Positions 9,294 to 63,009 of a DNA stretch of 64,000 bases are shown piece after piece. The notes under the pieces are model-generated. The model saw only the letters and a list, made by a program, of their open reading frames with translations. It was not told the origin of the DNA and did no database searches. Where the stretch lies: NCBI GenBank assembly GCA_000004985.1, contig GG738845.1. The stretch is one strand, 5' to 3'. The first letter of the stretch is position 1; each line of letters starts with the position of its first letter. Position numbers and translations under genes: made by a program. The stretch is from Naegleria gruberi (lineage: Eukaryota).

Positions 9294-9371
9294 TTGTACA
9301 ACATAATAAACCTTCAATCAAGGGAATCATAATTATTAAAATGGATTATATTACATAATTTACAAAATGAT

Positions 9372-10406
9372 TCAAGAAAGATACAATTGTCTAAATATGT
9401 CAAGGAATTGATTAATTGACATGTTTGCACCTCCACATTGCTCAGTGGCATACTCATAAACGAGCTCAAAGTCTACACCTTCTTCTTCAACAATCAAAGT
9501 CACATATTCCTTCAATTCATCTTTTGGAAGTGGTTTATCTCTTTCTTCAACAGTTGTTCGATATGATAATGTTTCAGTTGCACCAATGTCCTTCTTGTTT
9601 TGAATGCCAAATGTCATATGTTCAGTTCCAGGAAGGAATGGTGCTCTCATTCCCTTATCAATATTGTGGTCAACTCCATAGCCATACCCTCTAATACAAT
9701 CAATTGATCCCCATTCGTCAGGCTTATTTGTCATTCCAAACACCTTTCCATCCAATGGATCTTCATTTGGAACCGGCTCATCATGTACGAGTTGTCCAGC
9801 TGTTGGTGCTTGGTAATAAGTAGAGACTGTCTTTTTTGCTCCATCAACTTCTGGTTCCAAAACCTTTCCAAATCTAAAGTGTGTTGGGTCTCTTATTGGA
9901 GTTTTATCCCAAACATAATTCCTGTTAACTTGTTCTCCAGCTTCCCATGCTTGATGAGAAAGTTTGTACAATTCATTTCTTTCCTTCTCCATTTCATTTT
10001 GATCATACCTATCTATTGGGTAGAGAATATTCTTAGCACTCTCAGAGTAGTCAGTTTTAATACCAAACACCGAATCACCCTTAGCATGATTGTTTATAAA
10101 ATTAGTATGTTTCGCGGAATGGCCAACTGGTTCTCTCTTGTAAATGGCCTCCTTCTTCTCCTTATAATACGAAACAAGGGGAGGTTCATTAGGATGAATA
10201 CAATCCGAGGCAGCGCCATTACTACTTTCAATTTTTCCAAATCTTGTTGGGGGAACATAGTTTGAATCCGGATCATTTTTTGTGTCATATCCATACTTTG
10301 CATTTACTAGAGAATCTGAAACCTTATTCCTCAACAACATTTCATTGCTGGCTCCGAATGATTTGTATTGAGGGAAGGCATCCCTTATCTTTCCGCTTTC
10401 ACTCAT
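9372..10406 (-). CDS. Hypothetical protein with repeated aromatic-FG(K/I) motifs and a C-terminal acidic EF-hand-like helix pair. Candidate axonemal or EF-hand-family protein; assignment tentative.
   Basis: ATG at 10406 (aaaaaaaATG). Single ORF. Motifs RFGK, VFGIKTDYS, FRFGKV, VFGMTNK and TFGIQNK recur at roughly 40-60 aa spacing. C-terminus DELKEYVTLIVEEEGVDFELVYEYATEQCGGANMSINQFLDIF. Confidence 0.4.
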   Translation of the reverse strand: MSESGKIRDAFPQYKSFGASNEMLLRNKVSDSLVNAKYGYDTKNDPDSNYVPPTRFGKIESSNGAASDCIHPNEPPLVSYYKEKKEAIYKREPVGHSAKHTNFINNHAKGDSVFGIKTDYSESAKNILYPIDRYDQNEMEKERNELYKLSHQAWEAGEQVNRNYVWDKTPIRDPTHFRFGKVLEPEVDGAKKTVSTYYQAPTAGQLVHDEPVPNEDPLDGKVFGMTNKPDEWGSIDCIRGYGYGVDHNIDKGMRAPFLPGTEHMTFGIQNKKDIGATETLSYRTTVEERDKPLPKDELKEYVTLIVEEEGVDFELVYEYATEQCGGANMSINQFLDIFRQLYLS

Positions 10407-10628
10407 TTTTTTTAAAAATGTCAAGTTGAACTGTATACTGTTTGGCGCCAAAATACTAGCTGTCACTGTTACTCTCCAAGGAAACCAGGTGAAAACTCCT
10501 TTTTTTAAATATATCAATTAAATTTTCAGCTATTTTGTGTGTTCAATTCTGTTGTCAAAGAAATATGAAAGATAATTTGAAACACAAGCGAAAAGAAGGC
10601 AGGTAAAAGAAAAATTTGAAGAAAAAAA

Positions 10629-13073
10629 ATGAAAGGTTTTACATCTGAAGAACAACAGAATTATGCCCAACACCAAATGGACGTCTCCAACAAGGGACAC
10701 AAGGGATTGGGATTCTCCTCTGCAAAGAAATCATCCTCCACACAACAGCCAGCTGGTAAACATACTATTCTTGGTGGAAAGGTCTCTTCAACCACTTTCC
10801 GTATCTCACCAAGCAAGAAGCAAAAACAAGAAAAGTTGAAAAAGTTGTACCCAGCCATTTATGACTTTTTAGTTTATTGTGAATTGGATAATGTTGCTAA
10901 AGTTTTTGCTGAAACCACTGAAATGGTAAGTTGAACATTTTGTGAATCTTTGATCACTTAGTAATAATTTAAATAGGAAAATTTTGAAGAATTAAACATG
11001 CCAAAGGTTATGGAAGTTTATGAAGAACATTTTGCCAAGTATGGAATTGATCTTTATGGCGACTTTTTGAACTTGGGAGCTGCTTTAAAGCTTGCTAAAT
11101 CAACTAATACAATGACTGACGATGAATCATCAACAAAGAAGGCACCAACTTCTACTACATCTGCTTCCACAAGTCAATCCACAGAATCTTCTCCAAAGAA
11201 GAAATTTAGAAAGACCAAATCTGATTCATCATCTTCATCGTCATCATCAGATTCTGATTCCGATGCTGAAATGAAAGAAACACCAAAGGAAACACAAAAG
11301 TCCAAGAAGGAATCCAGCTCATCAGATTCTTCATCTGATGAAGAAATGAAAGATACCAAGCCTACTCAAACTAAGCCAGCTATCTCAAAGAAGGATTCTT
11401 CCTCATCTAGCTCTTCATCATCAAGTGAAGATGAGATGAAGCCAACACAAACCAAGCCAGCTGTGACAAAGAAGGATTCATCATCCGATTCAAGTTCTGA
11501 CAGCTCATCAGAAGATGAAAAGAAACCAGTTAGTAAGCCAGCTGTACAAGTCAAGCCTATTGTCACAAAGAAGGATTCATCAGATTCAAGCTCTGACTCT
11601 TCATCATCAGAAGATGAAAAGAAACCAACTCCAAAACCAGCTGTTGAAACTAAGCCTATTGTCACAAAGAAGGATTCTTCAAGCTCTGATAGTTCTGACT
11701 CTTCATCATCAGAAGACGAAAAGAAGAAGCCAGCTATCAAACCAACCGTCACAAAGAAGGATTCATCATCTGATTCAAGCTCTGATTCATCTGATGAAGA
11801 AATGAAGGATGCCAAGCCTACTCAAACTAAGCCAGCTATCTCAAAGAAGGATTCTTCAAGCTCAGACAGTTCCGACTCTTCAGAAGATGAAAAGAAACCA
11901 GTTAGTAAGCCAGCTGTTCAATCAAAGCCAGTAACTAAGAAGGATTCTTCATCTGATTCCAGCTCTGACTCTTCAGATGATGAAAAGAAACCAACTCCAA
12001 AACCAACTGAAACTAAACAAGTCATAACAAAGAAGGATTCATCTGATTCATCTGATTCCAGCTCTGACTCTTCAGAAGATGAAAAGAAACCAGTTAGTAA
12101 GCCTATTCAACCAAAGCCAGTAACTAAGAAGGATTCCTCATCTGATTCTGATTCATCATCCTCTTCAGAAGATGAAAAGAAACCAACTCCAAAACCAACT
12201 GAAACTAAACCAGTCATAACAAAGAAGGATTCCTCATCTGATTCTGATTCCAGCTCTGACTCTTCAGATGACGAAAAGAAGCCAGCTACCAAACCAATTA
12301 TCCAATCTAAACCAACCAAGAAAGATTCTTCATCCGATTCTGATTCATCATCCTCTTCAGAAGATGAAAAGAAACCAGTTAGTAAGCCAGCTGTTCAAAC
12401 CAAACCTATTGCTGCAAAGAAGGATTCATCAGATTCAAGCTCTGACTCTTCATCAGAAGATGAAAAGAAACCAACTCCAAAACCAACTGAAACTAAACCA
12501 GTCATAACAAAGAAGGATTCCTCATCTGATTCTGATTCCAGCTCTGACTCTTCAGATGACGAAAAGAAGCCAGTTAGTAAGCCAGCTGTTCAACCAAAGC
12601 CAGTAACTAAGAAGGATTCTTCATCTGATTCTGATTCATCATCCTCTTCAGAAGACGAAAAGAAACCAGCTGTTAAGGCAGTAGAAAAGAAACAAGCTAG
12701 CTCTTCATCAGATTCTAGCTCATCTGATGAAGAAATGAAAGAATCTTCTGATGCTTTGAAGAGAAAGAGAGAAGATACTGAGGAACAAGTTGAAGAACAA
12801 ACTGATGCCAAGAAGAACAAGTTTGAAAATGAAAACAATAGAGGTGTCCCATATCAAAGAGTAAAGAGAGACGAAGTCAAATTCCAAGATGAAAGATTAT
12901 CAGTAAGATCATACAGTTTTGGTTCTCATGGCGAAAGAGCTGTCAGAGATTTGGGCCCAACTAAAGGAAAGGACTTTAGAGCAGCTAAAACAAAGAAAAA
13001 GAAGAGTACGTATAGAGGAGGTGCTTTGGATGTCAATGTTGTTAGAAGCATCAAGTTTAATAATAACAAGTAA
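10629..13073 (+). CDS. NOLC1: Nopp140/SRP40-like nucleolar phosphoprotein with N-terminal LisH motif, about 10 alternating acidic-Ser/basic-Lys-Pro modules, and a C-terminal SRP40_C domain. Exons 10629..10925 and 10977..13073.
   Basis: Exon 1 ends KLYPAIYDFLVYCELDNVAKVFAETTEM with a GTAAGT donor; the 51-nt intron ends AAATAG. The body is SSSDSSSDEE/KKPTPKPTETKPV repeats. The C-terminus GVPYQRVKRDEV.F.DERL.....F.....G.RA..DL....GK.FR..KTKKK...YRGG is the conserved Nopp140 tail. Confidence 0.7.
11880..12660 (+). repeat. In-frame tandem coding repeats inside the Nopp140 gene, about 288-nt units. Two 118-nt stretches at 12168..12285 and 12456..12573 are identical.
   Basis: The string gaagatgaaaagaaaccaactccaaaaccaactgaaactaaaccagtcataacaaagaaggattcctcatctgattctgattccagctctgactcttcagatgacgaaaagaagccag occurs twice exactly, and related units lie upstream from about 11990. 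Confidence 0.7.
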
Positions 13074-14700
13074 ATAATTTTGATAATTTTTACTGTGTTT
13101 TAGTTCTTATCAACAAATTAATATCATTATTTAAGGACGTTAAAAATAATTTCAAATTACTCTTTCCACCCTGAATAGAGTTATTATTTGTTAGCAAAAT
13201 ACTAATGTGGTATTTAAGGATCCAAATCCCACGCGACTCCTTTGCAGTGACCAAGAAAAACAAATAAATTTTTGAGGTCATCATTTTTCATGTTTTCACA
13301 ATAAATATTAATATACATTTATTGTAAGCTTAAATCATTTTCTTTGACACATCATTGAATGCATCTGACTTTTTGTTATTGTTAAAGCTTTTTCTTGCAG
13401 TTAGAAAAGCAATTTCAAAAACATCCATAACATTTTCAATATATAATTTGCTGTTCTCATCATTAACATTTGCCACTTCTAATTCATGATAACTCTTGCT
13501 TCTTAATTATAGTGGTTTTTTGAACAATGCCTAATGATGTTGGATACTAAATATGAAAAAAACAAGATGATAATGTTGTGAACATTTTAATAACTCTTCA
13601 GAGGTTGTTTTATGCTGTAACGAAATGATCATAATGATTTATGAATCATGTGCTTAGAACCTATAACAAAAATATCTAAATCAACAGTTCTATACTTTGA
13701 CATGTAGGTGAAATCATTTTCATGCCCTTTTGGATGTCTAGTAGGGTTGTTAAATAATTTTGCTATTGAGGGTGGTGATTGAAGAGCCCTAGTAATTGTA
13801 ATAGCTTTCATCATCAAATGGATCAATTTTTGAAAAAGATGTTACTCATCCTCTTAAAACAAAAACATTAAATCAAAGTTGTCCATATGGACAAGGGTAA
13901 CAATATTAGTACTATTCATCATTGTGTTTGTCTTATGTTGTTCTAATTTGAATAACCAATCGAAATGCTTATATGTAGTTGTAGTCATTTTTTATCAAAT
14001 ATGAAAATGTAAATTTTACTAAAACCTACCCAATATCACATTGTGTTAATAGGTAATTTGTAAAAAAGTTGGAACAATGATGTCTAATGAATATTGCATG
14101 TAGAAATATTTGTTTGTTGTTTTTATGGTCTTGGTTGTCTTGTTATTACTTTCACCCTCTTTCTGAAATATATTACGCGTGTAACTATGAGATATACATC
14201 ATTACAAAAACACAATACATAATCCCATTGTGCTTGTTGTATGTTTGAATCATCGAACAATTTAGAGAAAAGGAAATTGAAATTTTCTAATATACTAACA
14301 GAAAAATAATCGCATCTCTCTAAGTTACACGTGTAGATTAATTGGTAGGAATAATAATAATTCAAAAAACTTAAAAAACCATTAAAAACAAATCTGCTTT
14401 GGATAATTGGTTATCCAAATGAAAATATCATTTTACCACATTATCTGTCTCCAAATTGGATATGATTAAATGAAATCCAATAAAATAATATTAACTTATT
14501 ATATCTGAAATTTCTATTGAAATCTTATTCTGTGTTAGAGTGGGAATTCTTTAGCCGCTTGTGGTAATTGAGTATAATGAGTAATTTTATTCCTTTCATT
14601 TACTCTTTCTTGGTAGTACCGTTTGGTGGTTTAGTGTTTCTCAATCTTAATTCGAGTTTGAATATAATTTTTGTATATTTTCACAATTTATTTTGTTGTT

Positions 14701-14716
14701 ATATATATATATATAT
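14701..14716. repeat. (AT)8 microsatellite in the gene-poor AT-rich island. A second TA-rich tract lies at about 15146..15170.
   Basis: Read directly: atatatatatatatat. Confidence 0.8.
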
Positions 14717-15039
14717 GTGAACAAAAATTATATTTATCTATGTTAGAAAAATCATTTCCCTATTATTCTTCATCATACTCCTCATCATGCAGTTAAAATT
14801 TAATTTGATTGCAATAATCTAAATGATTAAAAGTACTTTCTTTTTATTAGAAATCAAGTTACCAGCATTAATTGTCTTAAAAATCAATGTTGTTCAACAA
14901 CTTCTATCATATTTATTGGAATCTTGATGATCCAATTTTATTCCATACCATGTTTACCATTTAATATCGAGTAGTAAAAATATGTAAATTAAAAAATGGA
15001 AAAAATGTTTTTTTGAAAAAAATTTCGATAAAAACTAGA

Positions 15040-15067
15040 AATTTATTAGTATTTCAATGAAAAATAC
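15040..15067 (+). repeat. Copy 1 of an exact 28-nt dispersed repeat, aatttattagtatttcaatgaaaaatac.
   Basis: Identical 28-mer at 15040..15067 and 16306..16333. Both copies sit 3-12 nt downstream of an aaactaga motif. Confidence 0.7.
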
Positions 15068-16305
15068 GAATTTTCATACATGCGTTGGTGGGATATGTTT
15101 GTCATATTAGATATTTAATAAAAATAAAATAAAAATTTTCGCATGCATATATATATATTTATGTATATATACATCCGAAAAAATTTTTGTTGAAAGTTGG
15201 TTTATAAGATGGTGGTTAAATTGGTTTATCTGAAAAATCATTTAATGTGATGTTAGATATAAAGATAATGAAATTAATTGAAAATTAAGAAGCAAAAATA
15301 AATTTTCAAAAATTTTATCGATTTGAAATTTAGAAAAGCTTAACAAAGTAATATAAAATACAAAGACCATTAATTTTTAAAAATCTTCTAAAGTTGGTAT
15401 TATCATTATGAAGATTATTGATTGGAAGTAATAATCTTTATGGTAAATTCAAAGAAAATGAATTCAAAGAAAAAACAAACTTTGTAAAAATATTACAAAA
15501 ACACTGTTATTAGAAGTATTAAAAGTAGAGTTGTGATAGTTGTTTATTAAAACAAAGAAAAACTCTTACACCAAGAAATAGACAACTAGATTCATGGAGG
15601 TTGATGGAGTGATAAGTTTAAAAATATATTTAAACAAAATCCCAATAAAATTCGATATGTTTTGCCTGAGATGGGTGGGGTGGTAATGGTATTTCTGAAA
15701 ACTCTATTATTAACTAATTCTTATTTATTTAAAGCACAACTCATTTGATTAAAAAGGTCAACAAATGATCCTATCTTGTTCCTGCTGGTGTTTGAATTGA
15801 TTTTGTTGTGAGTAAATTGATTTTTTTTTACTACATTTCAGAATTACAGATATAGCTTTTCTTTACAATAATCCATCTTAAACCACTTTTTGGATGTTGG
15901 TGACTAAAAAATCAGCAAAAAGCGAAGTTTGGGATAGATATTAATATAGCATCATACTTATAATTATATTCTTGCTCTTCTGAAAATAAAAACTTACATT
16001 TCAAACCTCATCCACAGAAAATAAAATAATTTATCGTTCGTAATATTTGGGAGTGGTATATAAAGGTGTTTGTATTAATAATGAGCTTTTCGGCAATTAA
16101 GAACTCTGTGTAACACTTGATGATTTGGGTTTAGATTGAGTGTTGTTGAGGGGGAGTGTGTTTTAAATAGGCAAATAGGAATTTTGAGTTTTTGGGAGGG
16201 ATAGTTGTTTCAGTAGTTTGGATCAAGTTTACTAAAATAAAAAACAAAAAACTCGCAGAAACTAGAGTAATTTTAACATATCTTGTATTTCCTTTAGAAT
16301 CAAGT

Positions 16306-16609: not shown

Positions 16610-18103
16610 ATGTACAATCCGCCAGAGGATACTAGTTCGGAACAACAATTTCATCCTATCTCATGTAAAAATTGCAAACGTTTGCACAAAACTTGCAACA
16701 AAAGGTATCCAACTTGTAGCGGGTGTGAATGGAGAAACATTAGATGCGAATATGAGAAACCAAAGAGAGTAACGAACAAGAAGAAAACAAAGTCAGAAGT
16801 AACCTCCATTCAATGGATTGCAAATACGGAACAAAAAACTAGTGATAATATGGATCCATTATCGGATTGGATTGAAATTAGAAAATATATTGATCAGTAT
16901 TTTACAATATTGCATGAAATTAAATTTATTGAAAAAGAAGAGTTAGAACTTTATATGTTGAGGAGTGATAACTCAGCACAACTGCCCAACTTTAAACAGA
17001 TACGTGCTTTATTCTATTGTATAGTGGCACATTTGACACAAATATTAGCTCTTGAATGTGCTGATGATTCACTGAACAGAGCTGTTGAAGCTGTACGTGA
17101 GTTTTTCAACGAATACTCTAATTTTTATGTGGCTTGTTCTTATGGATTATTGGCATTGGTTGAAGTTGGGTATGGAAGGGTGAAGAATGCCAGATTCTAT
17201 TTGAAATTTGTTGATTTTTATATGGATGAACTTGCAAAGGAAGATAGGAATAATTATTATGTTGTTAATTTACAAAAATTACAAATAGTTGTATGTGTGG
17301 ATGCGAAATTTGATTCTTCTGTGAGCTGTGTTGTTAGAGATTGGTTTTATATTTTAGGAAAATATATTGGTATCGAGCTCCCAAAAGAATGGAAAGATTT
17401 TATTGTTCAAGAAATAGATGAAAATAATTACATACTATTTATTCAAATGCTGCAAGCACTCATTCAAATAGGAAAGTTAAATCTAAAAGATGAAAAAACA
17501 GTAAGATTTTATAACGAAACTGCAGACATGCTTTATCATGGAATACGCATAAGAATTCTTACTGAGATGAACAAGAGTCCAGAGTTGGTGGAAGAAAGTG
17601 CCTTGAAAATTGTTCATTTAACTGAGTCAGATATGTTTTCGGTATCTCCTGGATTTCTATCAAACTCTATTGCTGCATCTGCAAAAGTAATTCTTCACAT
17701 AGTTAGACTGATAGAAATGGGCCATAGAAAGAATTGTGATGAATTTTCGATACATGGACCAATTAATTATTTTCAAATTTTATCTAAAATTTACAGAGGC
17801 TTGCAAATTATGGGAAAACGATTCAGGAAAGTATTTCTTCTTCAGGGTTCAACAATCAAGGAAATTGAAATTATTTTAAATCAATATTCTCTTAATTCTC
17901 CTTTGACAAGAGTTGATATGAACAATATTTCGTCAGAAAATAGTGGACCATCAATTACAGAATTCTTCCAGATTATTTCAGCAAATAAGGACACTTCTGA
18001 ATATGAACGAATGCAATATGAGCGAAATGTATTCAATATTTTACAACATATACAATTGCCTAATAGCAAACCAACAAGTAATTACCCACCTATGGGTTTG
18101 TAA
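16610..18103 (+). CDS. Zn(II)2Cys6 binuclear-cluster transcription factor, single exon, 497 aa.
   Basis: N-terminal CKNCKRLHKTCNKRYPTCSGCEWRNIRCEY is the six-cysteine Gal4-type cluster followed by a basic linker. Long uninterrupted ORF. Confidence 0.7.
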   Translation: MYNPPEDTSSEQQFHPISCKNCKRLHKTCNKRYPTCSGCEWRNIRCEYEKPKRVTNKKKTKSEVTSIQWIANTEQKTSDNMDPLSDWIEIRKYIDQYFTILHEIKFIEKEELELYMLRSDNSAQLPNFKQIRALFYCIVAHLTQILALECADDSLNRAVEAVREFFNEYSNFYVACSYGLLALVEVGYGRVKNARFYLKFVDFYMDELAKEDRNNYYVVNLQKLQIVVCVDAKFDSSVSCVVRDWFYILGKYIGIELPKEWKDFIVQEIDENNYILFIQMLQALIQIGKLNLKDEKTVRFYNETADMLYHGIRIRILTEMNKSPELVEESALKIVHLTESDMFSVSPGFLSNSIAASAKVILHIVRLIEMGHRKNCDEFSIHGPINYFQILSKIYRGLQIMGKRFRKVFLLQGSTIKEIEIILNQYSLNSPLTRVDMNNISSENSGPSITEFFQIISANKDTSEYERMQYERNVFNILQHIQLPNSKPTSNYPPMGL

Positions 18104-18198: not shown

Positions 18199-19898
18199 AT
18201 GCAAACTACCAAACGTTCCGTTTCCGTGGTTACTTCCTCCTTGAAGCGCACTCTTGCCAGTGGTCAAAAGAGAAATTTCTCATCAGGTATCGTTAACAAT
18301 GGTGTTAACACTGAAAAATGGGCTGCACAATTGAATGCCTCTTTAAAGGATGTTGATCCTGAATTGTTTGATATCATTGAACACGAAAAGAATAGACAAT
18401 ACAAGGGTTTGCAATTGATTCCATCAGAGGTAAATATATTTTAATTATAATTTTGATCATAAAATTTCGGAACGATAATTAATTTGGAATATTATATTTA
18501 AACATTTGATGACGATTCATAAACAATTAATACCAACAACAATTTAAATAATACCAATACTTGTTTAATAATAATAACAGAACTTTACTTCCAAGGCCGT
18601 TTTGGATGCTTTGGGATCTGTCATGCAAAACAAGTACAGTGAAGGTTATCCAGGAAAGCGTTATTATGGTGGTAATGAATATATTGACATGTCTGAATCT
18701 CTCTGTCAAAAGAGAGCCCTTGAAGCATTCAATTTAGATCCAAAGGAATGGGGTGTTAACGTTCAAAGTTTGAGTGGTTCTCCAGCTAACTTTTATGTTT
18801 ACACTGCTTTACTTCAACCTCATGATAGAATTCTCTCATTGGATTTGCCACATGGAGGCCAGTAAGTTTTTTTCACACATACACTCAATTCAATCTTTCC
18901 TTAGTCTTTCACATGGTTACCAAACTCCAACAAAGAAAATTTCTGCAGTCAGTATCTATTTTGAAACATTAGGATACAGATTGAATGAAGAAACTGGTTT
19001 GATTGATTATGCCAAGATGGAAGAATTGGCTGATTATTATAGACCAAAGTTGGTTGTTGCTGGTGCTAGTGCTTATTCTCGTTTGATTGATTATGCTGCC
19101 TTCAGAAAGGTTTGCGATAAGCATAATGCTTACCTTGTTTCTGATATGGCTCACATCAGTGGTTTGGTTGCTGCTGGTGTTATTCCATCACCATTTGAAC
19201 ACTCACATGTTGTCACTACTACTACTCACAAGAGTTTGAGAGGACCAAGAGGCGCCATGATCTTCTACAGAAAGTCAATTGAAGGTCTCGAGGATAAGAT
19301 TAATGCTGCTGTTTTCCCAGGTCATCAAGGTGGTCCACACAATCATACCATCTCTGCTTTGGCTGTTGCCTTAAAGATGGCTACAACCCCAGAGTACAAG
19401 GAATATCAAGAACAAGTTTTGAAGAATTGTAAAGTTTTGACTGAAGAAATGAAAAAGTTGGGCTACAAGATTGTCAGTGATGGTACTGATAACCACTTGC
19501 TCCTTGTTGATTTGAGAAATAAGGGTGTAGATGGTGCTAGAGTTGAAGCTGTTCTTGAACGTTCGAGCATTGCTGTCAATAAGAATACCGTCCCAGGTGA
19601 TAAATCTGCTATGGTTCCAGGTGGTATCAGAATGGGTTCACCTGCTTTGACAACCAGAGGATTTTTGGAAACTGACTTTGCTCAAGTTGCCCAATTTGTT
19701 CATGAGGGTATTCAAATTGCTCAAAAGACTAAGGTTGAACTTGAAAAGCAAGGTCTCAAGAAGGTTAAGGACTTTAAGGATCATTTGGATCAAAACCCAG
19801 ACGCTGTTGGTATTACTCAATTGAGAAATAAGATTGAATCATTCAGCAAGTCATTCCCATCCATTGGTTTTGACAAGGAATTCATGAAATACAAATAA
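18199..19898 (+). CDS. SHMT: Serine hydroxymethyltransferase, probably mitochondrial. Exons 18199..18429, 18581..18861 and 18905..19898.
   Basis: R/S-rich presequence [17 protein letters not shown]. Exon 2 reads [33 protein letters not shown]...SGSPANF...LDLPHGG. Exon 3 starts (H)[14 protein letters not shown] and includes [11 protein letters not shown] (PLP-lysine region). Introns are 151 and 43 nt with phases checked. Confidence 0.85.
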
Positions 19899-27325: not shown

Positions 27326-30300
27326 ATGGTCACCCGTAAGGAATTAGAAGAAATCTTTAAAGAAAGAATTCTCATCATCGATGGTGCTATGGGTACCATG
27401 ATCCAAAAATACAAGCTCTCAGAAGCTGATTTTAGAGGTAGGTAATGATGTTCGGAACATTTTAAATTCAATTATATCAAATATTCTTACTTGTGATGAA
27501 TAATTTTAGGAGAGGAATTCAAGGATTGGAATTGCGATTTGAAGGGTAACAATGATATGTTGTGTATTACACGACCTGAAATTATTGTTGAAATTCATGA
27601 AAAATACTTGGAAGCTGGAGCAGATATTATTGAAACTAATACCTTCTCATCAACAGTTATTTCTCAAGCCGATTACAATGCACAATCATTAGCATATAGA
27701 TTAAACTTTTGCGCAGCTCAGTGTGCTAAAAAAGCTGCCACAAAATATACTCAACTCACACCTGAAAAGCCTCGTTTTGTTGCTGGTGCTTTAGGTCCAA
27801 CAAACAAGACCGGTTCTATTTCTCCTAGTGTTGAAGATCCTGGTTTTAGAAATATCTCTTTCGACGAATTATATGAAGCATATTTCGAACAAGTTCGTGG
27901 TTTAGTTGATGGTGGTGCTGATATTTTGCTCATTGAAACTATTTTCGATACATTAAATGCAAAGGCTGCTGCATTTGCTTGTATGGATTATTTGGAAAAG
28001 TTTAATATTGATATGCCAATTATTATTTCTGGTACAATTACCGATCAAACTGGTAGAACCTTGTCAGGTCAAACAACTGAAGCTTTCTACATTAGTATGA
28101 TGCATAGTAATATGCTTTGTATGGGTCTCAATTGTGCATTGGGTACTGTTCAAATGAAGCCTTTCGTTAAGGCATTGTCTAACATTGCTGAATGTTTTAC
28201 TCATGCTTATCCAAATGCTGGGTTGCCTGATGAAATGGGTCAATACAGACAAACTCCGGAAGAAATGGCTCGTCAAGTTAAGGATTTCCTTGATGAAAAA
28301 CTCGTCAACATGATTGGAGGTTGTTGTGGTACTACACCAGATCACATTAGAGCTTTGGCTCAATTGGCAGCTCAATACAAACCAAACCAAATCAGAAAGC
28401 CACAAGAACCTACTCATGATATGAAATTATCTGGATTGGAACCAATGATTTATTCTAAGAATTCTAACTTTATCAACGTTGGTGAAAGATGTAACGTTGC
28501 TGGTAGTATTCGTTTCAAGAAATTGATTATGGAAAATAAGTTTGAAGATGCCTTGTCTATTGCTAGAAACCAAGTTGAAGCTGGTGCTCAAGTAATTGAT
28601 GTTAACATGGATGAAGGCCTTTTGGATTCCAAGAATGTCATGAAGAAATTCTTGTACTTGATTATGAGTGAACCTGAAATTTCCAAGATCCCAATCATGG
28701 TTGACAGTTCTAAATTTGAAGTTGTTGAGCAAGGTTTGAAATGTATTCAAGGTAAATGTATTGTCAACTCATTGAGTTTGAAGGAAGGTGAAGAAGATTT
28801 CATTGCCAAGGCCAAGAAGGTCAAAAAGTACGGTGCTGCTGTGGTTGTCATGGCTTTCGATGAACAAGGTCAAGCTGCCGAATGTGCCAGAAAGGTTGAA
28901 ATTTGTACTAGAGCTTACAAGATTTTGACAGAAAAAGTTGGATTCCCACCAGAAGATATCATTTTTGATCCAAATATTCTTACAATTGCCACTGGTATTG
29001 AAGAACACAATAATTATGGTGTTGAATTCATCAATACTATCAAGATTATCAAGGAAACCCTCCCATATGCTAAAGTATCTGGTGGTGTATCAAACTTGTC
29101 ATTCTCTTTCCGTGGTTTAACTCTTGTCCGTGAATCTATGCACAGTGCATTCTTGTATCATGCCATCAAGGCTGGTATGGATATGGGTATTGTAAATGCT
29201 GGTGCTTTGCCAATTTATGATGAAATCACACCAAAGATCCTTCAATTGTGTGAAGATGCTATTTTGAATAGAAATGAAAATGCAACTGAAAATCTTTTAA
29301 GTTTTGCCTCCGAATTGAGAGAAAAGCAAGCTCATGGTGAGGATATTGAAGGACCAAAACAAAAGGAAGTTTTGGCTTGGAGAACTGGCTCAGTTCAAGA
29401 AAGACTCAAACATGCCTTGATTAAGGGTATTGTAGATTTTATTGATTCAGACGTTGAAGAAGCAAGACAAAATTTGCCATCTCCACTCTCTGTTATTGAA
29501 GGTCCATTGATGAATGGTATGAATGTTGTTGGTGACTTATTTGGTGCTGGTAAAATGTTTTTGCCTCAAGTTATTAAGAGCGCTCGTGTCATGAAGAAGG
29601 CTGTCAAGTATCTCATTCCATACTTGGAAAAGGATAAGGAAGAGAAGCGTCTCAGAGGTGAAGCTACTTCTTCATCAGCTGGTAGAATCTTATTAGCCAC
29701 TGTTAAGGGTGACGTTCACGATATTGGTAAGAATATTGTTGGTGTAGTCTTGGCCTGTAATAACTTTGAAGTTATTGATTTGGGTGTCATGATTCCTCCT
29801 GATGTTATCGTTCGTGAAGCAAAGGAAAAGAATGTTGACATTGTTGGTCTCTCTGGTTTGATTACTCCATCTTTGGATGAAATGGCTACTGTTGCCAAGG
29901 AAATGCAAAAGGGTGGATTGACTTGTCCACTTCTTATTGGTGGTGCTACTACATCTAGAACCCACACTGCTGTCAAGATTTGCCCACAATACGATCAACC
30001 ATGTATCCATGTTTTAGACGCCAGTAGAAGTGTTGTTGTTGCCTCAAGCCTTTTGGATAATAGATTGAGAGAAGAATATATGGAAGAAATTAATGAACTC
30101 TATGAAGAATTGAGGGAAGAGCACTACGACTCACTCCTTGAAAGAAAGTTCGAAAATATTCAACATGCCAGACAATCCAGACTTGCAATAGATTGGGAAA
30201 AGCAACCACCTGCAAAGTCTCCAACCTTTTTGGGTGAAAAAGTTTTGGACAACTTCCCTCTTGACCAACTTGTGTCTCATATTGATTGGTCTCCATTCTT

Positions 30301-31162
30301 CTCAGTGTGGCAAATTAAGGGTAAATATCCACACAGAGGTTACCCAAAGATTTTCAACGATCCTGATGTTGGTGAAGAAGCTAAGAAACTCTTTGATAAT
30401 GCTACCAAGATGTTAAAATCTATTATTGAAGAAAAGAAACTCGTTGCTAGAGGTATTGTTGGTTTCTACCCAGCCAATACAAATGATTCCAAGAGTTTGG
30501 ATGATATCGAAATTTATGATCCAACTTGTCCAGAGGAAAAGAAGCAAATTGGTACATTCTATGGTCTTCGTCAACAAGCTGAAAAGGAAAATGATGAAGA
30601 ACCATTCATGTGTATTTCTGACTTTATTGCTCCAAAGACTACTGGATTGAATGATTATATTGGTCAATTTGCTGTTTCCATCTTTGGTGCTGAAGAATTG
30701 GCTGCTAAATATCAAGAAGATGATGATGACTACTCATCCATTATGGTTAAAGCTCTTGCCGATAGATTGGCAGAGGCCTTTGCTGAATTATTACACGAAC
30801 TTGTCAGAAAGGATTATTGGGGATATTCTCCAGAAGAAAAGTTGGATACTGAAGATTTGTTGAGAGTTAAATATCAAGGTATCAGACCTGCTCCTGGTTA
30901 TCCATCACAACCTGACCACACTGAAAAGGAGACAATGTGGAGAATTGGTCAAATTACTGAAAAGACTGGAATTAAATTGATTGAAGAAAGTTTGGCAATG
31001 TGGCCACCTGCATCCGTATCTGGATTATACTTTGCTCACCCAGAAGCTAAATACTTTGCTGTTGGTAAGATTAGTAAGGATCAAGTTGAAGATTACATGA
31101 AGAGAAAGGAATGGGCTGATATGGATTATGCTGAAAAGAAATTGAGCACAATGCTCTTCTAA
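27326..31162 (+). CDS. metH: Cobalamin-dependent methionine synthase (MetH/MTR). Exons 27326..27437 and 27510..31162, about 1255 aa.
   Basis: Exon 1 [27 protein letters not shown]...DFR(G). The 72-nt intron is GTAGGT..TTTTAG. Exon 2 reads [17 protein letters not shown]...[11 protein letters not shown] (Hcy-binding domain), then the pterin-binding domain, the B12-binding region [10 protein letters not shown]...[10 protein letters not shown], and the C-terminal AdoMet activation domain. Confidence 0.9.
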
Positions 31163-33360: not shown

Positions 33361-34045
33361 TTTGATCTTCTGTCTTTGTGTGTGAAAAAGATGACTGTGT
33401 GTTAACGCGTTTTTTTTGGGTGGAATTTTTCTGATTGTTGCTGGTAGTTCCCGAATTTATTGCTGTTCGGGCAAGTGAATAAGAATGCTACTGGAAGAGA
33501 GAAAGATTAAAAAACCGAACAGTTGCTGCAAGATCTTTTCTGAGTACGATCAAGGAGAATTTTATATTATCAAATGGTGATACAAAGATGACAAGTGTAA
33601 AAGTGTGAAGAAATTTTAGAGAAATCACAAGCTTACACGATGGTGGTGTGCGAAGAGAGAGACAACGAATAACAACCTTTGGCAAGTGTTCGGGAACCGA
33701 AGCTTGGTTGAAGAATTAATATTTGGATTCTCTGAGAAGCTTTTTAATTGTGGCGATTTTTCGTTTTTTGGAAAATTAGCTCAGTTTTTCATCATTACAC
33801 GGCTTAAAGAAGAAATAGAGAAGCTGTAGTTTATTGTTTTTTATTGTAAACAATGTTTGTTTTAATTAATTAAAAGGAAGATTGAAATTCCTTTCGCACG
33901 GTTTTAAAACCGTAGTTGAGCTCACTTGTTACAATTCAATTAAAATGGTAATAAATAGCAGTTATTATTACAGAGATCTATGTGTTTATTAACATGTTTT
34001 ATTCAAGTTCTTGTCAAAGGTTTAATTAAAGTCAATTACAAAAAA

Positions 34046-35692
34046 ATGTCTCTTAATGCCAACAGCAAGCCATTTGTTCCTTCTTTTTTGAATGTTTTTC
34101 CGAATACTGCCTCCTCATCATCATTACCAGTATCAACAACAAGTAATTCTTCTTCAAATAATCATCAAACACACAAATCATCAAGGAGTAAAAAGTCTTC
34201 ATTATCCTCGGAACCTAAAAGAAAACAAGGGAATGCCAATATGGCCGGTTACAATTTGAATTTTCCCACTGTTGCTAGTGCTGACAATGAAGAATCACCT
34301 CAACAATCAGCAAAATTTTCATATAAAGACATTTTGACAAGTACACCAATTAGTTTGCTTCCCAATAATTTAGAACCTACATTCAATAATCCTGTAATTA
34401 ATCAAAAGACTCTATCACCACAGAAAACTTCCGAAACCTCCAAAGCATCTCTGAAGCAAGTTGTATCTGATATTCCTATAGTGGAAAAGAAGAAGAATAA
34501 GAAATTTACATTGGCAGATCATATTGGTGAAGAAATATCAAGGAAAATCAATTTTTCATCCTCTAATACTAATTCCCATGAAAAGTCTACAGTTTCAAAA
34601 CAAGCAACAAAAACAACCAAAAAGGAAATTCCAAAGGATGACAATACTAAAAAATCATTGTCAAAAATGAATCGAGTTGAAAAGGCGTTTCTTTCTAAAG
34701 GAGATATGAAGGGAATGAAACCAATTAGATTGGAAATTCGTTCTGAGGATGCATCCAAGATTACCAACGAAGATGTCTATAATGCATTCATTAAAGCTGT
34801 GACTCATTCAACTAATGAGGAATCAACAGAAGCTCTTGTTACAGTTCTTACAAAAAAGAAAAAACCAAACAAACTAAAGAAATTAATCTTAAAGGAAAAG
34901 GAAATTAGAAAGTTGCATAATATTGCTCCAGGCGAATTTTTGGATGTTAAGAAATTTTTAAAGAATTTGAAAGAGGATACAGAGACTGAATCAGTTGTAA
35001 TTGAAATAGTACCTGAAAAAACAGAAGAAACAACCATATTAGAAAATTCAAAAACAATATTAACAAAAGAGGATGACTCATCTGATGGAGAGGAAAAGCT
35101 TGTTGCAGATGATGAAATGGACATCCTCTCTATTGCCGAGTCAATGGAGGTTGTTCTCAAAAATTCAAATGAAAGAAAAATTAGAGAATATGTAAATTAC
35201 CCTCTGGATCCTGATTATGAGAATATCATTTTTCAAATGTTGACCAAACTTCAATTCTATCAGTTCAGATTGAAAAAAACAGATAAGAAAAAGTTCAAAC
35301 AAAGATTGAGATATGTGATTGGTATAAGAGAGGTACTCAAGGGATTAAAACTAAAACATATCAGAGCCGTAGTAATTGCTCCAAACATTGATAAGGTTAC
35401 TACTCCAGGTGGACTTGACACAAAGATTGAGGAAATTATTCAAAAGTGTAATGAACAAGAGCTACCAGTATTCTTTGCTTTGACAAAGAAGAAACTTGGA
35501 ACTGCCATGAAAACTTCAACCAAAATTAGTCTAGTTGGTTTGTATAGTATGGATGGTGCTTTTGATGAATTCAAGAAGGCAAAACAAATTGTGGAGGAAA
35601 AATTACTTGCCATTGAAAAACAAAAGAAAGAGCAAAACAGATCCGGTTCTGTTTGTACAGAACAACCTGGAAATGTTGATTTGAAGAATTAG
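34046..35692 (+). CDS. SECISBP2: Lys-rich protein with a C-terminal L7Ae/L30e-type RNA-binding domain; best resemblance to SECIS-binding protein 2 (SBP2).
   Basis: C-terminal region RLRYVIGIREVLKGLKLKHIRAVVIAPNIDKVTTPGGLDTKIEEIIQKCNEQELPVFFALTKKKLGTAMKTSTKISLVGL has the L7Ae-fold signature and closely parallels the SBP2 L7Ae module as I recall it (from memory, not database-checked). A long K/E/S-rich N-terminal region precedes it. Confidence 0.45.
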   Translation: MSLNANSKPFVPSFLNVFPNTASSSSLPVSTTSNSSSNNHQTHKSSRSKKSSLSSEPKRKQGNANMAGYNLNFPTVASADNEESPQQSAKFSYKDILTSTPISLLPNNLEPTFNNPVINQKTLSPQKTSETSKASLKQVVSDIPIVEKKKNKKFTLADHIGEEISRKINFSSSNTNSHEKSTVSKQATKTTKKEIPKDDNTKKSLSKMNRVEKAFLSKGDMKGMKPIRLEIRSEDASKITNEDVYNAFIKAVTHSTNEESTEALVTVLTKKKKPNKLKKLILKEKEIRKLHNIAPGEFLDVKKFLKNLKEDTETESVVIEIVPEKTEETTILENSKTILTKEDDSSDGEEKLVADDEMDILSIAESMEVVLKNSNERKIREYVNYPLDPDYENIIFQMLTKLQFYQFRLKKTDKKKFKQRLRYVIGIREVLKGLKLKHIRAVVIAPNIDKVTTPGGLDTKIEEIIQKCNEQELPVFFALTKKKLGTAMKTSTKISLVGLYSMDGAFDEFKKAKQIVEEKLLAIEKQKKEQNRSGSVCTEQPGNVDLKN

Positions 35693-35717
35693 AATATTTT
35701 ACATTTTATTTTACAAT

Positions 35718-36752
35718 TTATAATCTTAGCATGTTGTCATCTTCGGTTCCTTTGATTTTTCCTTCAAACCATGTCAGAATGGCTGTAAAATGTTTCAAAT
35801 CCACATTAATTTCACCAAGAGAATCAATAATATTGTTAGACTCAACTTTAGGTTTGTTATTGTCACTCAATAACGTCAATAATTCCTCTGTCCTTTCACA
35901 AAACTTTTCTTCCTGTTTGTTCAATTCCTTTCCTTTGAGTGTTTGATAGAGTAAGAATGCTGCCAATTTAATATAATGTCTTTTTTCCAATGGATTTTGT
36001 AATTTCCTAGGCTTTTCTTTTCCCAACGCAAGAATGTCAGCAAGATCCATCAATTTTAAGCTTGGTAATGCCTTTTGTTTTGGATCAAAACCTCTTTCAA
36101 TTTTCTTTGTTTTTCTCAGTAATATTTTGAGAATAAATTTTGCTCTCTTTTCACTAGATTGGAAGCTTGGGTAACTATTCATAAATTCATTAATGTGCAT
36201 CTTGTTGTCTTCTCCTCTTTCAACACATGAGTAAGACAATTGAGCCATCTTGTTGTTTTTAAATTCTGTGAAATTTGAATTGATTGAATCAAATAATATA
36301 AAACGATCGTCCTTATCATCGAGAAGGGCAGGATCAAATTGAGGCTGATCACTAGGTGACCCAGTGAAAGAGCCAGTAAATGAAGATTTGATAAATGAAG
36401 ACGACAGGCTAGGACTGTCGGAACTAGAATTGTCGTTATTTGAGGCAGAATTTGATGCTGCTGTTGATAGAACTTCACTATTGTGGTAGTCCTTCCTTAG
36501 TGATTCAAATCTCATCTCATAATAAACGTCATCGAAGGGTATTTCAGTCGAGTATTCCTCTTGGATCACCTTAGAAGGAAGTCGAGGGGATTTTGGCACC
36601 TGTGGAGACAATGTTTCTTGCAAGCTATAATTCGGAGGTAAACTATGAGAGACAATTCTCTTGGTAATTTGCTCTGGTTGTGGTAATTTGATTGCATCCC
36701 CAAAATCTAAGGCTATAAGTCTGTGCTCTTCTACTGAGCATGCTGTACCCAT
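35718..36752 (-). CDS. Hypothetical protein, N-terminal MGTACS (N-myristoylation consensus), 344 aa.
   Basis: ATG at 36752; MGxxxS start; Ser/Asn-rich middle; no family recognised. Confidence 0.35.
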   Translation of the reverse strand: MGTACSVEEHRLIALDFGDAIKLPQPEQITKRIVSHSLPPNYSLQETLSPQVPKSPRLPSKVIQEEYSTEIPFDDVYYEMRFESLRKDYHNSEVLSTAASNSASNNDNSSSDSPSLSSSFIKSSFTGSFTGSPSDQPQFDPALLDDKDDRFILFDSINSNFTEFKNNKMAQLSYSCVERGEDNKMHINEFMNSYPSFQSSEKRAKFILKILLRKTKKIERGFDPKQKALPSLKLMDLADILALGKEKPRKLQNPLEKRHYIKLAAFLLYQTLKGKELNKQEEKFCERTEELLTLLSDNNKPKVESNNIIDSLGEINVDLKHFTAILTWFEGKIKGTEDDNMLRL

Positions 36753-36924
36753 TTTTTTTGAATAATTACTGTATTTTAACAGGTAGTATTTATTAGCAAC
36801 AGTTTTTAACAACTTTAGAATGAAAGAAAAGAACTGGTCATTATCATGTTGAACAGAGTTTAGCCCCACATTTTCTTATCAAGGTTTGGCGCCAAAATGG
36901 TTACGAAAATAAAGCAAAAAAAAA

Positions 36925-45644: not shown

Positions 45645-47809
45645 ATGAATGAATCCCTAAATTTGAGCAGTATCATAAATGAGGAGTCGATTAATAACTC
45701 TAACAATGAATATCTAAGAAAGAGTTCAGATAGTGAAGAGGATATTTCCAAGACTGTAGAGGAACATTATAATCACATTCATGTTTGCGTACGAGTCTCT
45801 CCTGTACCAGGTATGTAGATTTCTCTAGTATCATTCATGTTTTATTGAATCAAATAGCTGAGGAAGCGAGTGCTAATGCTCAAAATATTGTTGAAATATC
45901 GGATGTAAACAAGTTGATTGCCTATCACCCTGAAAGTAGAGAGGGTTTGCTCTATTCATTTGACAATTGTTTTGATTCAGAAACAACAAACAACACAATC
46001 TTTGAGAGTGTTTGTGTACCAGTATTGAATGCCGTGATTGAGGGTTATAATGGAACTATTATTTCCTATGGATCTTCTCGAACAGGAAAAACTGAAATGA
46101 TGATTGGAAATGAAAGAGAGGAAGGAATTGTTGATTTGACATTCAGAGAAGGCTATTCCTATCTCTCTTCAGTTTCTGACAAGGTGGATTATAGTATTTC
46201 TTTTTCTTTCTGGGAAATGAGTAATGATTCGATTTTGGATTTACTTGATTTGAATGAGGGGAAAGAGCTCAAATTAAAAAGAAGTGGAAAGGAAGGGGTA
46301 TTTATCACAAATCTATCTGAACATCAAGTTGACAGTTGGGAGCATCTTCAATCACTAATTGATAATGGTATAAGAAGAAGCCAACAATTGACTGCTCAAA
46401 GAAAAATTAGGTTGCACTCCTTTATGAGATTAAGGCTCACAAGAAACAATTACGATCACCCAGAAGAGGATGTCTCATCTTCTTTTATGTTTGTAAACTT
46501 GAAGGGTACCGAAAGAATTGGTAAAATTGGAGCAAAGGGAGATCATATGAAGGAAGGAGCAAGTTTAAACATGAGTATGATTGCTTTCGGTAACGCAATT
46601 CACAATGTAGTCAACCACACACGAGTTAAAAAGGATACAGCTATCAATATTAACAGTTTATTTGGAGACTCTCAAGTAACTGCCATGATGAGCGATTCTC
46701 TTGGTGGAAAGAGTGCCACAGTAATTATTGGATCTATTTCTCAAACGGAATTCCACTATCTTGAAACAATGGAAGTTTTGGAAAATCTCAGAATTGCAAG
46801 ACACATCCTCTCAAAACCTGTAAAACAAGTCTTGAACTCTAAAATCAAAAAGCTCTATAATAAGATTAAAAAACTCGAAACAAGCATTCCAGAAGATAAA
46901 CTAGCCCCTGGCCATCCCCCAACTGAACAGCAAGAGGAATTGGAATACTACAAGAGATTATACAGGAAATACCTTGATGGATTGGTAGATGACGAAGATT
47001 TGGACAAACCAATGGAAACAAATCCTTCTCTTCAAGATATTCCTGAATTGGAATTATCAAAAACGGATCAATTATGGAAACAAAATGATGCCAAGAGTCA
47101 GAGACATGGTATTCGTGCCACAGTTTATAAACCCTCATCACTTCAAGGGAAACCAAAGGAAACTTACAAAGGACAATGGAAAGGTCATCAAAAACATGGC
47201 TACGGAGAGGTTGATAATGAAAAGGTAAATTATAAAGGTGGTTGGGCAAATGATAAAAAGCATGGTAAGGGATCCCTATATTCAAAGGAAAAAAACAGAA
47301 GAGTATTTCTGGGAGAATTCCAAAACGATAAGAAGCATGGAAAGGGTGTATTTTATTATGAAAATGGAGAAATTTATGACGGTGAATGGAAGGACGACAA
47401 AAGGTGTGGCTATGGAGTCATGTACTATCTTGATGGAACGAAATATGAAGGAGAATGGGAAAATGATATGAGAGGAGGTAATGGAGCCTGTGTGGAAAAG
47501 AATGGAGATAGATTCGAAGGTTCCTTCCTGAATGGATTGAAGCATGGTCCAGGAGTGTATTACTATATCACACAAGGTCAAAAGTATGTTGGGGAATGGT
47601 TTAAAGGTGTTGCAAAGTGTGGTCAACTATATTCAGATATTGATTATACAGAAGAAGGAATGGACAGTTTTGAGAGCTCAACAAAAATTCCAGAAAATCA
47701 ACTGCAAGATAGAATGAAAGTTATTGAAGATGCAGTCACATCTGTTCGTATTCAAATGCAACAAGAACATTTACTCCCTTCTGCAATAAGAGAAAATATT
47801 TACGAGTGA
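45645..47809 (+). CDS. Kinesin-like (degenerate motor) domain fused to about 7 C-terminal MORN repeats. Exons 45645..45810 and 45858..47809, about 705 aa.
   Basis: Exon 1 ends IHVCVRVSPVP (kinesin beta1-like). The motor-like region has a P-loop GSSRTGKT (canonical GQTxSGKT), a switch-I-like RKIRLHSF and a switch-II-like FVNLKGTERIGKIGAKGDHMKEGASLNMSMIAFGNAIHNVV (canonical DLAGSE). Then YKGQWKGHQKHGYGEV, YKGGWANDKKHGKGSLY, GEFQNDKKHGKGVFYYENGEIYDGEWKDDKRCGYGVMYYLDGTKYEGEWENDMRGGNG are MORN units. Intron 47 nt. Confidence 0.6.
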
Positions 47810-47856
47810 ATCAGGATTGAATTTAAAATAGATACGTGGCACTATCAACCAAAAAA

Positions 47857-48219
47857 ATGTCTGCAACCACCGAAAACAAAGTCACTTTCAAGATTACTTT
47901 AACATCACACCCAAAGCAACCTTTTAGAACGTATGTAAATAAATGATTGACCATTTCCGATCATTGAATTAATCATCACACATATTGTAACAATTAATAA
48001 TAACAATCAAACGGGATTAGAATCAAGGTTCCTGAAAGTGCACCATTCACTGCTGTTTTGAAGTATGCTGCTGAAGAATTCCAAATTTCTGCTGAAACTA
48101 GTGCAATTCTCTCCAATGATGGTATCGGTATTAATCCTAGTCAAACTGCAGGAAACGTTTGGCTCAAGTATGGTACAGATTTACGTATTATTCCAAGAGA
48201 CAAAGTCGGTGGATTTTAA
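47857..48219 (+). CDS. UFM1: Ubiquitin-fold modifier 1 (UFM1). Exons 47857..47930 and 48021..48219, intron 90 nt.
   Basis: [24 protein letters not shown](T)[65 protein letters not shown] is near-identical in pattern to metazoan UFM1, including the VG-xx C-terminus. Confidence 0.8.
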
Positions 48220-61436: not shown

Positions 61437-63009
61437 ATGATAGACATGATATGGACTTTAAAAAAAATGAAAAAACTAATTTCAACCACGAACAGTTGTC
61501 TCAAGTTTAGATCATCAACATTACTCATCGGAAGATCAAACTCTTGTTATAAAAGAGTTGATCAACAGGTGAATAACTTATCATTGAGAGGAGAAAAAAT
61601 AATGAGAACATTCTCTACTAGAGTTTCTTCTTTGATGGATAATAATCAACAAACGGATTTGGAAAAGGCAGTATTTGCAGAAAAACAAGAATTATTCAGA
61701 AAAGCTCTATTAGAATCAGTGATTAATAAGGGAAATAAGGATACCAAATTTTATTGGGCTTGCTTTTCTGCTTTGGCGTCATTTGGTACTTTAGGATTCG
61801 AAGTTCTTTTCAGAATGTTGGACATTCCATTCATTGGCTTTGGTTACGCTGCTCTATTAACTTGTTATCTTTTGTTTAATAGATCTGCATCAATGTTATC
61901 AAGTGGTTCCAATATTGCTGCATCAATGGTAAGTATTTTGTTGTGAGCTTTTATTCAAACTTATTGAAATAACTTTATAAGGGAGGAGTTGAAATTTTAC
62001 CAAACTCTACAATTCCAGAACACGCCAGAGTTTATAGAATGGTTGAAGAAATTACCAATTCAGTTAAATTAAAAACCATTCCAAAGGTTTATTGGATTGA
62101 CTGTGATGAAGCCAATGCATTTGCATCTGGATACTCTATCAAAAAGAGTTGTATCACGGTCACAAAAGGATTAGCCTCAATGCTAAATGATGATGAGTTG
62201 AAAAGTGTTATTGGTCATGAAATGGGACATGTACTAAATGGTGATATGAAAACTGGTACATTAATTGCAGGAATGATTTCATCCTTTGCAATAGCTGTGG
62301 ATTTAACCAGACATTTAAAGAGTAACCAAAGTAGCAATAGCTCCAAATCCAGTAGTAGTAACAATAAGGGAAAAGATAATTCCCAAGCCATTATTGGATT
62401 AATCATCTTACTATCATACGTCACACTCTTGGCTGGTAAATTGTTATCAGTGGCAGTAAGCAGACACAGAGAATATGCATCAGACGCTATTGCCGGTGCT
62501 TTAACTCATCCTTACTATATTAGAGATGCTCTTCGTAAGATATCTAATCAGCATAACAAACCAACGTTTAGCTCAATTTCAAAACTGCCAACATCAGACT
62601 CTACTAATCACTTGATGTTTTTCGAGAGAGAAAAACTGACCTCATTAACATCAACACATCCTTCCATGGAGGAGAGATTTGCTAATTTAGATAAATTAGC
62701 AAGCTTTGACGTTGAAGATTTTAGAAAATTAGCCAAGGTATGTTTAACCTTATTAAGATGTGCTATAATTTCATTTAGGTTTCAGTTATGAGAGATGAAC
62801 GTGCCAAGAATACTATTCTTGGTATAATGTTCTTGTACTGTTTATTTATTATTTTCTTAATCTACAATATTGGGGAGGATACAGTTTTAAAGTACTTGAA
62901 TGAAGGTTCTGAAGATATTTCAAAATTAATTTCACAAGGTCCAACATATTGTAAGGAGCTTTTGGAAAAAACCTGGAAAAGTATTTTAGTGTTACTTTCT
63001 AAACCTTAA
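61437..63009 (+). CDS. OMA1: M48-family zinc metalloprotease (OMA1/HtpX-like), probably mitochondrial. Exons 61437..61928, 61982..62737 and 62779..63009.
   Basis: The presequence-like region contains MRTFSTRVSSL. Exon 2 reads GGVEILPNS...VYWIDCDEANAFASGYS...VIGHEMGHVLNGD (HExxH) ...REYASD. Introns are 53 nt (GTAAGT..ATAAG) and 41 nt (GTATGT..ATTTAG). Start codon uncertain (61437 vs 61600). Confidence 0.6.

Follow-up and report, generated by a model that had tools for sequence, protein, structure and literature searches.

The locus described here raises the question of whether a gene deposited under the name "predicted protein" encodes the factor that recognizes selenocysteine insertion sequence (SECIS) elements, and whether its features fit a working system for incorporating selenocysteine (Sec). 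The gene lies in a 64,000-nucleotide stretch of contig GG738845.1 from Naegleria gruberi (assembly GCA_000004985.1), which was analysed as a whole and is called the window below. The coding sequence spans positions 34046–35692 on the + strand, encodes 548 residues, ends with a TAG stop at 35690–35692 and needs no intron. From the letters alone, a first-pass annotation had proposed a SECIS-binding protein 2 (SBP2). The identification is correct but not new, as the Sec machinery of N. gruberi was published in 2013. The same annotation had considered such a find notable for a protist or fungal genome, which does not stand: the organism is a heterolobosean and not a fungus, and its Sec system was already in the literature. 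Our homologue searches found only one member of the SBP2 family in N. gruberi, and by its sequence the gene is very probably the single SBP2-family gene of this organism.

Pfam recognizes one domain in the protein, the L7Ae/L30e/S12e/Gadd45 family (PF01248), at residues 413–495 (32.9 bits over a gathering cutoff of 22.1, E 5e-8), so that the L7Ae/L30e kink-turn module had been read correctly. Its location had been read partly so: the module is in the C-terminal part of the protein, but about 50 residues come after it. The peptide quoted in the first-pass annotation, VIGIREVLKGLK...ISLVGL, corresponds to residues 424–499. Pfam sees only the generic family, and one homologue (P0007) was named "ribosomal protein L7Ae-like RNA K-turn-binding protein" by the Joint Genome Institute (JGI). 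Both would suit a generic kink-turn protein of the RPL7A, RPL30, NHP2 or SNU13 type that carries a low-complexity extension and is unrelated to selenocysteine. This explanation is effectively refuted. When all PDB chains were searched with phmmer, human SBP2 (7zjw_B) was matched with an E-value of 5.5e-29, residues 268–515 being aligned to residues 523–765 of SBP2, whereas RPL7A was the only other match below E 1, at 0.18, and none of the NHP2, SNU13 or RPL30 structures reached E 1. A profile built from the N. gruberi, N. fowleri and Willaertia proteins matched SBP2 alone in the PDB (E 6e-36). Judged by the phmmer E-value, the similarity to SBP2 is therefore far beyond chance; the module does track SBP2, as had been proposed, and the best matches are not proteins of the NHP2, SNU13, RPL7A or Gadd45 type. 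Upstream of the L7Ae module, the homology also continues for 150 residues and takes in motifs found only in SBP2. RPL7A, RPL30, NHP2 and SNU13/15.5K belong to the same kink-turn-binding fold family, but they are single-domain proteins without the K-rich domain or the RRFRDY block, whereas the Naegleria protein is a multi-module protein of 548 residues.

When 1.84 billion representative sequences were scanned exhaustively with HMMER, 1155 relatives were identified at E<=1e-3, 581 of them at E<=1e-10, and the alignments of many cover residues 268–525 of the query, that is, the K-rich and the L7Ae regions together. The named homologues include SECISBP2 of gecko and milkfish and a JGI entry, "selenocysteine insertion sequence-binding protein 2", besides proteins from a choanoflagellate and two molluscs. 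Identity to human and rat SBP2 is about 33–40% over some 250 C-terminal residues.

The RNA-binding domain of SBP2 has been divided into three parts, namely the K-rich domain (human 516–544), the segment 624-IHSRRFR-630 and the L7Ae module from R672 to I749 (Takeuchi et al. 2009, PMC2673426). All three are recognizable in the N. gruberi protein. A lysine-rich region ahead of the L7Ae module had been noted in the first-pass annotation, and it is found at residues 268–292 (LTKKKKPNKLKKLILKEKEIRKLHN; 34847..34921, + strand), aligned to human SBP2 523–545. Within it, ten of the fifteen residues of KKKPNKLKKLILKEK (residues 271–285) are identical to those of human 526-AKKPTSLKKIILKER-540, the core required for binding both SECIS and the 60S subunit (PMC2673426), and LILKE takes the place of human IILKE (535–539). 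The second part is the RKIREY block at residues 377–382 (35174..35191, +), which aligns with RRFRDY in human 624-IHSRRFRDY-632. This segment has been described as "characteristic of SBP2" (PMC2673426) and is listed elsewhere as FRDY629-632 (PMC2746813). Among 150 representatives of the family, 61 match the pattern R[RK][FIL]R[DE]Y, where 0.02 matches would be expected. The third part is the L7Ae module itself (35282..35530, +), which contains YVIGIREVLKGLK and GGLD and corresponds to about residues 660–745 of human SBP2; there, YVIGIREVLKGLK...APNIDKVTTPGGLD...FFALTKKKLG is aligned with human LVLGLREVLKHLK...SPNCEKIQSKGGLD...VFALNRKALG. The K-rich domain and the RKIREY block are separated by a poorly conserved acidic linker (residues 293–372; 34922..35161, +) with 30–36% identity and low values of the predicted local distance difference test (pLDDT). 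The corresponding human segment has also been described as less conserved (PMC2673426).

Could the gene be a remnant of Sec machinery, decaying in a lineage that has given up selenocysteine, as in some nematodes and insects? Such remnants are documented elsewhere (PMC4114682), and no Sec-related element lies inside the window. We consider this very unlikely, because the open reading frame (ORF) is intact and the modules are 76–88% identical to N. fowleri and 63–76% to Willaertia, the divergence being in the linkers. Moreover, both SPS2 and a Sec-type thioredoxin reductase (TrxR) have been reported in Naegleria (PMC4561486, PMC8038987). The pattern can be followed along the three heterolobosean proteins, with identities given for N. 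gruberi against N. fowleri (P0002; 769 residues, 47% identical) and against Willaertia magna (P0003; 552 residues, 38%), respectively. The K-rich domain (residues 268–292) reaches 88% and 76%, the region around RKIREY (373–412) 78% and 58%, and the L7Ae module (413–515) 88% and 63%, as against 10–36% in the linkers. Purifying selection is centred on the K-rich domain, the RRFRDY block and the L7Ae module. This mosaic conservation is the pattern expected of a functional modular protein rather than a decaying one.

Further upstream, one more block is conserved within Heterolobosea (KMNRVEKAFLSKGDMKGMKPIRLEI...NEDVYNAFIKAV, residues 206–253; 34661..34804, +), with 69% identity to N. fowleri and 56% to Willaertia and no significant match to vertebrate SBP2. 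From its sequence, it may represent the N-terminal portion of the SID (Sec-incorporation domain), as the counterpart of the QLDL element. Closer to the N-terminus, the segment NFPTV, about 15 residues and FSYKDIL (residues 69–99; 34250..34342, +) shows 54% identity to N. fowleri and 31% to Willaertia, compared with 14–35% in its flanks. A pair of motifs, [DE]FPxL and, some 20 residues further on, SY[SK]x[IV]L, recurs in other representatives of the SBP2/SBP2L family (for example P0049, P0102 and P0124); its N. gruberi form is NFPTV...FSYKDIL at residues 72–97, and the pair may be related to the vertebrate "DFPE" motif. A BLASTP comparison of the N-terminal 150 residues with gecko SBP2 was not significant, and we therefore claim N-terminal homology for the short motifs and not for the whole region.

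These features invite comparison with both animal paralogues. With human and rat SECISBP2 (7ZJW/7ZJX), the N. gruberi protein shares the order of modules: an N-terminal motif named LSAD, a long disordered region, the K-rich domain, RRFRDY and L7Ae. It differs from human SECISBP2 in length (548 residues against 854) and in having Lys in place of human R540; we did not find in it the upstream QLDL/SID motif, the QEPP and IWKK elements specific to vertebrates or the C-terminal extension, and it has the heterolobosean-specific block of its own. With SECISBP2L it shares the core of SID and RNA-binding domain, the N-terminal LSAD and, in a motif scan, elements of the EFPxL...SYSxxL type. The SBP2/SBP2L duplication, however, has been placed within animals (PMC2746813), and the Naegleria gene, a homologue that predates it, is the orthologue of neither paralogue. 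The protein might nonetheless belong to the SBP2 family without inserting Sec, and act as a post-transcriptional regulator or a general kink-turn or messenger ribonucleoprotein factor, as discussed for vertebrate SECISBP2L. The C-terminal part of human SBP2L neither supported Sec incorporation in vitro nor bound the GPX4 SECIS more than weakly (PMC2746813), and the undetected upstream SID motif and the long N-terminal extension with SBP2/SBP2L-type short motifs would agree with such a role. It is an improbable one here, since only one family member was found in an organism reported to make selenoproteins, so that some SBP2 activity is needed. The split between SBP2 and SBP2L has also been placed within animals, and in invertebrates that have SBP2L only, this protein is thought to do the job of SBP2 (PMC2746813).

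The short SBP2s, such as the 313-residue dSBP2 of Drosophila and those of green algae and slime moulds (PMC2746813), have the same core of K-rich domain and L7Ae, which is enough for SECIS binding in those proteins (PMC2673426). They lack an N-terminal extension, whereas in the Naegleria protein about 265 residues, the LSAD motif among them, precede the K-rich domain. Where Drosophila has SVRVY, Naegleria has LILKE, and in swap experiments this segment correlated with binding of form 1 SECIS elements (PMC2673426).

Several observations weigh against an SBP2 that functions in Sec incorporation. Upstream of residue 268 we found no significant similarity to vertebrate SBP2, and the QLDL449-452 part of the Sec-incorporation domain was not detected. 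The position of human Arg540 is occupied by Lys285. A full-length AlphaFold2 model, calculated from an alignment of four sequences, had a mean pLDDT of 42.5 and a predicted template-modelling score of 0.21 and added no evidence on the fold. The 64-kb window contains neither a tRNA-Sec nor a SECIS element nor a selenoprotein gene, although an SBP gene was reportedly listed in 2013 by da Silva et al. Arg540 of human SBP2 has been described as universal (PMC2673426); Drosophila and Dictyostelium have likewise been reported to lack the QLDL motif (Donovan and Copeland 2009, PMC2746813).

Are other parts of the pathway to be found near the gene? Of the companions predicted in the first-pass annotation (tRNA-Sec, eEFSec, PSTK, SepSecS, SPS2 and selenoprotein genes), the 64-kb window has none. 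ARAGORN detected no tRNA in the window, and no Rfam family reached its gathering score there; neither SECIS nor tRNA-Sec nor any other credible RNA appeared even at E<=10. A scan of the window for in-frame TGA codons gave five weak candidates, and those at 9372–10517, 45785–47809 and 62039–62791 are not in a selenoprotein family. The corresponding TGA-ended reading frames lie at 9360–10517 on the − strand (open for 3 more codons, no Pfam match), at 45773–47902 on the + strand (30 more codons, a kinesin with MORN repeats) and at 61973–62827 on the + strand (11 more codons, an M48 peptidase), and the three TGA codons are most likely ordinary stops. The co-occurrence of the gene with a Sec pathway therefore rests on the literature. 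The abstract of the 2013 study is said to name PSTK, SepSecS, SelD/SPS2, EFSec and an SBP gene, reportedly with confirmation by reverse transcription PCR. Three later papers (PMC4561486, PMC8450103, PMC8038987) cite the study itself (da Silva et al. 2013, Mol Biochem Parasitol 188:87) for the Sec machinery of N. gruberi, and it is among the sources from which tRNAscan-SE 2.0 drew its set of eukaryotic tRNA-Sec, taken from genomes with identified selenoproteins. SPS2 serves as a marker of Sec use, and in N. gruberi SPS2 is fused to a methyltransferase domain, in addition to a NifS-SPS fusion (Mariotti et al. 2015, PMC4561486). The large TrxR of Naegleria has been predicted to contain Sec (Leitsch et al. 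2021, PMC8038987).

How the N. gruberi SBP2 would act can be proposed by analogy with its characterized counterparts in mammals and Drosophila. Selenoprotein mRNAs have SECIS hairpins in their 3' untranslated regions (UTRs), whose kink-turn-like core would be bound jointly by the L7Ae module and the K-rich domain; the same surface would bind the 60S subunit, alternating with SECIS. The complex might then recruit eEFSec-GTP-Sec-tRNA(Sec), upon which the in-frame UGA would be read as selenocysteine. RNA binding, ribosome binding, recruitment of eEFSec and the target mRNAs are all transferred from those systems.

The start of the protein needs revision. On the + strand the reading frame is open without a break from 33980 to 35692, which gives 570 residues when counted from its first ATG. 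The deposited N. gruberi "predicted protein" (P0001, NCBI) has 483 residues, begins with MAGYNLNFP and equals residues 66–548 of our product at 100% identity; the NCBI gene model starts at the internal ATG of Met66 (34241..34243, +) and leaves out residues 1–65. The ATG at 34046 begins MSLNANSKPFVP..., and the orthologues of N. fowleri and Willaertia begin a few residues ahead of the conserved LSAD motif, which the NCBI model drops. On this comparison of sequences, 34046 is the better start, and the deposited one is placed 65 codons too late. The in-frame ATG at 33980 was rejected, as it would add 22 residues without a counterpart in the orthologues. Synteny at the Willaertia locus was not informative. 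At the other end of the gene, only 25 bp (35693–35717) separate its stop from that of a convergent gene on the − strand (35718–36869; 383 residues if counted from the first GTG of the listed ORF, without a Pfam match), and the 3' UTRs of the two genes must overlap or be extremely short.

The residues restored by the earlier start contain the LSAD motif, LNANSKPFVP at residues 3–12 (34052..34081, +), which is conserved in the orthologues and in human SBP2. Its equivalents are LSADSKPFVP in N. fowleri, LNASSKPFFP in Willaertia and 16-LSADVKPFVP-25 in human SBP2, the last paired with it by HMMER as domain 1. In an earlier survey, LSAD15-26 was seemingly restricted to deuterostomes, with the addition of a tick and Trichoplax, and protist SBP2s were classed as having no N-terminal extension (Donovan and Copeland 2009, PMC2746813). 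No function was assigned to the motif in that description.

What might this motif do? It resembles PAM2, a motif with which proteins dock on the poly(A)-binding protein (PABP) and whose consensus is LNxxAxEFxP, with a small Ala at position 7 that contacts the MLLE surface and is unfavourably replaced by a bulkier residue (PMC7356810); PAM2-N of eRF3 reads L69-N-V-N-A73-x-x-F76-V-P78 (PMC2854688). In LNANSKPFVP, Leu3, Asn4, Phe10 and Pro12 agree with the consensus, and positions 7 and 9 are Ser and Pro. The KPFVP tail of LNANSKPFVP is shared with eRF3. The motif sits at the terminus of the protein in a region predicted to be disordered. We scanned 151 sequences, consisting of the 150 best family representatives and the N. 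gruberi protein, and took expectations from shuffled sequences. A strict expression for the PAM2 core, modelled on the ELM pattern, matched 32 of the 151 as opposed to 0.9 expected, mostly near the N-terminus; 19 of these matches fall within the first 60 residues, where 0.03 would be expected, and several more are at the extreme C-terminus. Many members of the family show the full consensus, for example LSVDAKEFVP, LSVNAAEFVP and LSASAAEFVP. With a looser pattern the motif was found in 63 of the 151, and its consensus is L-S-A-D-A-x-[P/E]-F-V-P. Position 7 counts against PAM2, since Naegleria has Ser there and human SBP2 has Val in place of Ala, and in the literature we searched, which was covered incompletely, we found no paper linking SBP2 or SECIS to PAM2 or to PABP. 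That the LSAD motif of the SBP2 family is a PAM2 motif docking SBP2 on the MLLE domain of PABP is thus a tentative proposal from motif patterns, which we think somewhat likelier to be wrong than right.

The remainder of the window, at about 33% G+C, carries ordinary eukaryotic housekeeping genes. They encode cobalamin-dependent methionine synthase, HMG-CoA synthase, ERO1, serine hydroxymethyltransferase (SHMT), the kinesin with MORN repeats, RPAP1, a DHHC palmitoyltransferase, Las1, an ABC transporter, THOC1, GWT1, the M48 peptidase and an SRP40/Nopp140-like protein. Methionine synthase (27539–31162) is full-length, with five MetH domains in an ORF of 1207 residues, and the SHMT gene (18774–19898) lies about 7.6 kb away; both enzymes belong to one-carbon metabolism, and their proximity is probably coincidental. 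In the gene for the SRP40/Nopp140-like protein (10998–13073), the segment 11304–12671 consists of imperfect tandem repeats, about 96, 192 and 288 bp long, with units rich in Ser, Asp and Lys. The most AT-rich stretch, at 14001–16000, has 24% G+C and no ORF of >=200 residues, and includes a short TA-rich tandem repeat at 14704–14751. An ORF of 497 residues at 16610–18103 weakly matches the Zn(2)-Cys(6) binuclear cluster (E 2e-5, 24.9 bits, cutoff 21), a family named as fungal, whereas the host is a heterolobosean.

As a confirmation that a "predicted protein" is the SBP2 of a known selenocysteine user, the main result carries little weight. What is gained is a functional name for the deposited protein and a corrected start codon that restores 65 N-terminal residues. 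The presence of the LSAD motif and of an N-terminal extension in Heterolobosea extends their range far outside animals, compared with the near-confinement of the motif to deuterostomes in the 2009 survey. If LSAD does act as a PAM2 motif, it would be the first function for the N-terminal region of SBP2, a region not required for Sec insertion in vitro, and the link between SECIS-dependent UGA recoding and the poly(A) tail would be at least as old as the common ancestor that Heterolobosea share with animals. Such a link would suggest that translation or stability of selenoprotein mRNAs might be under PABP-dependent control.

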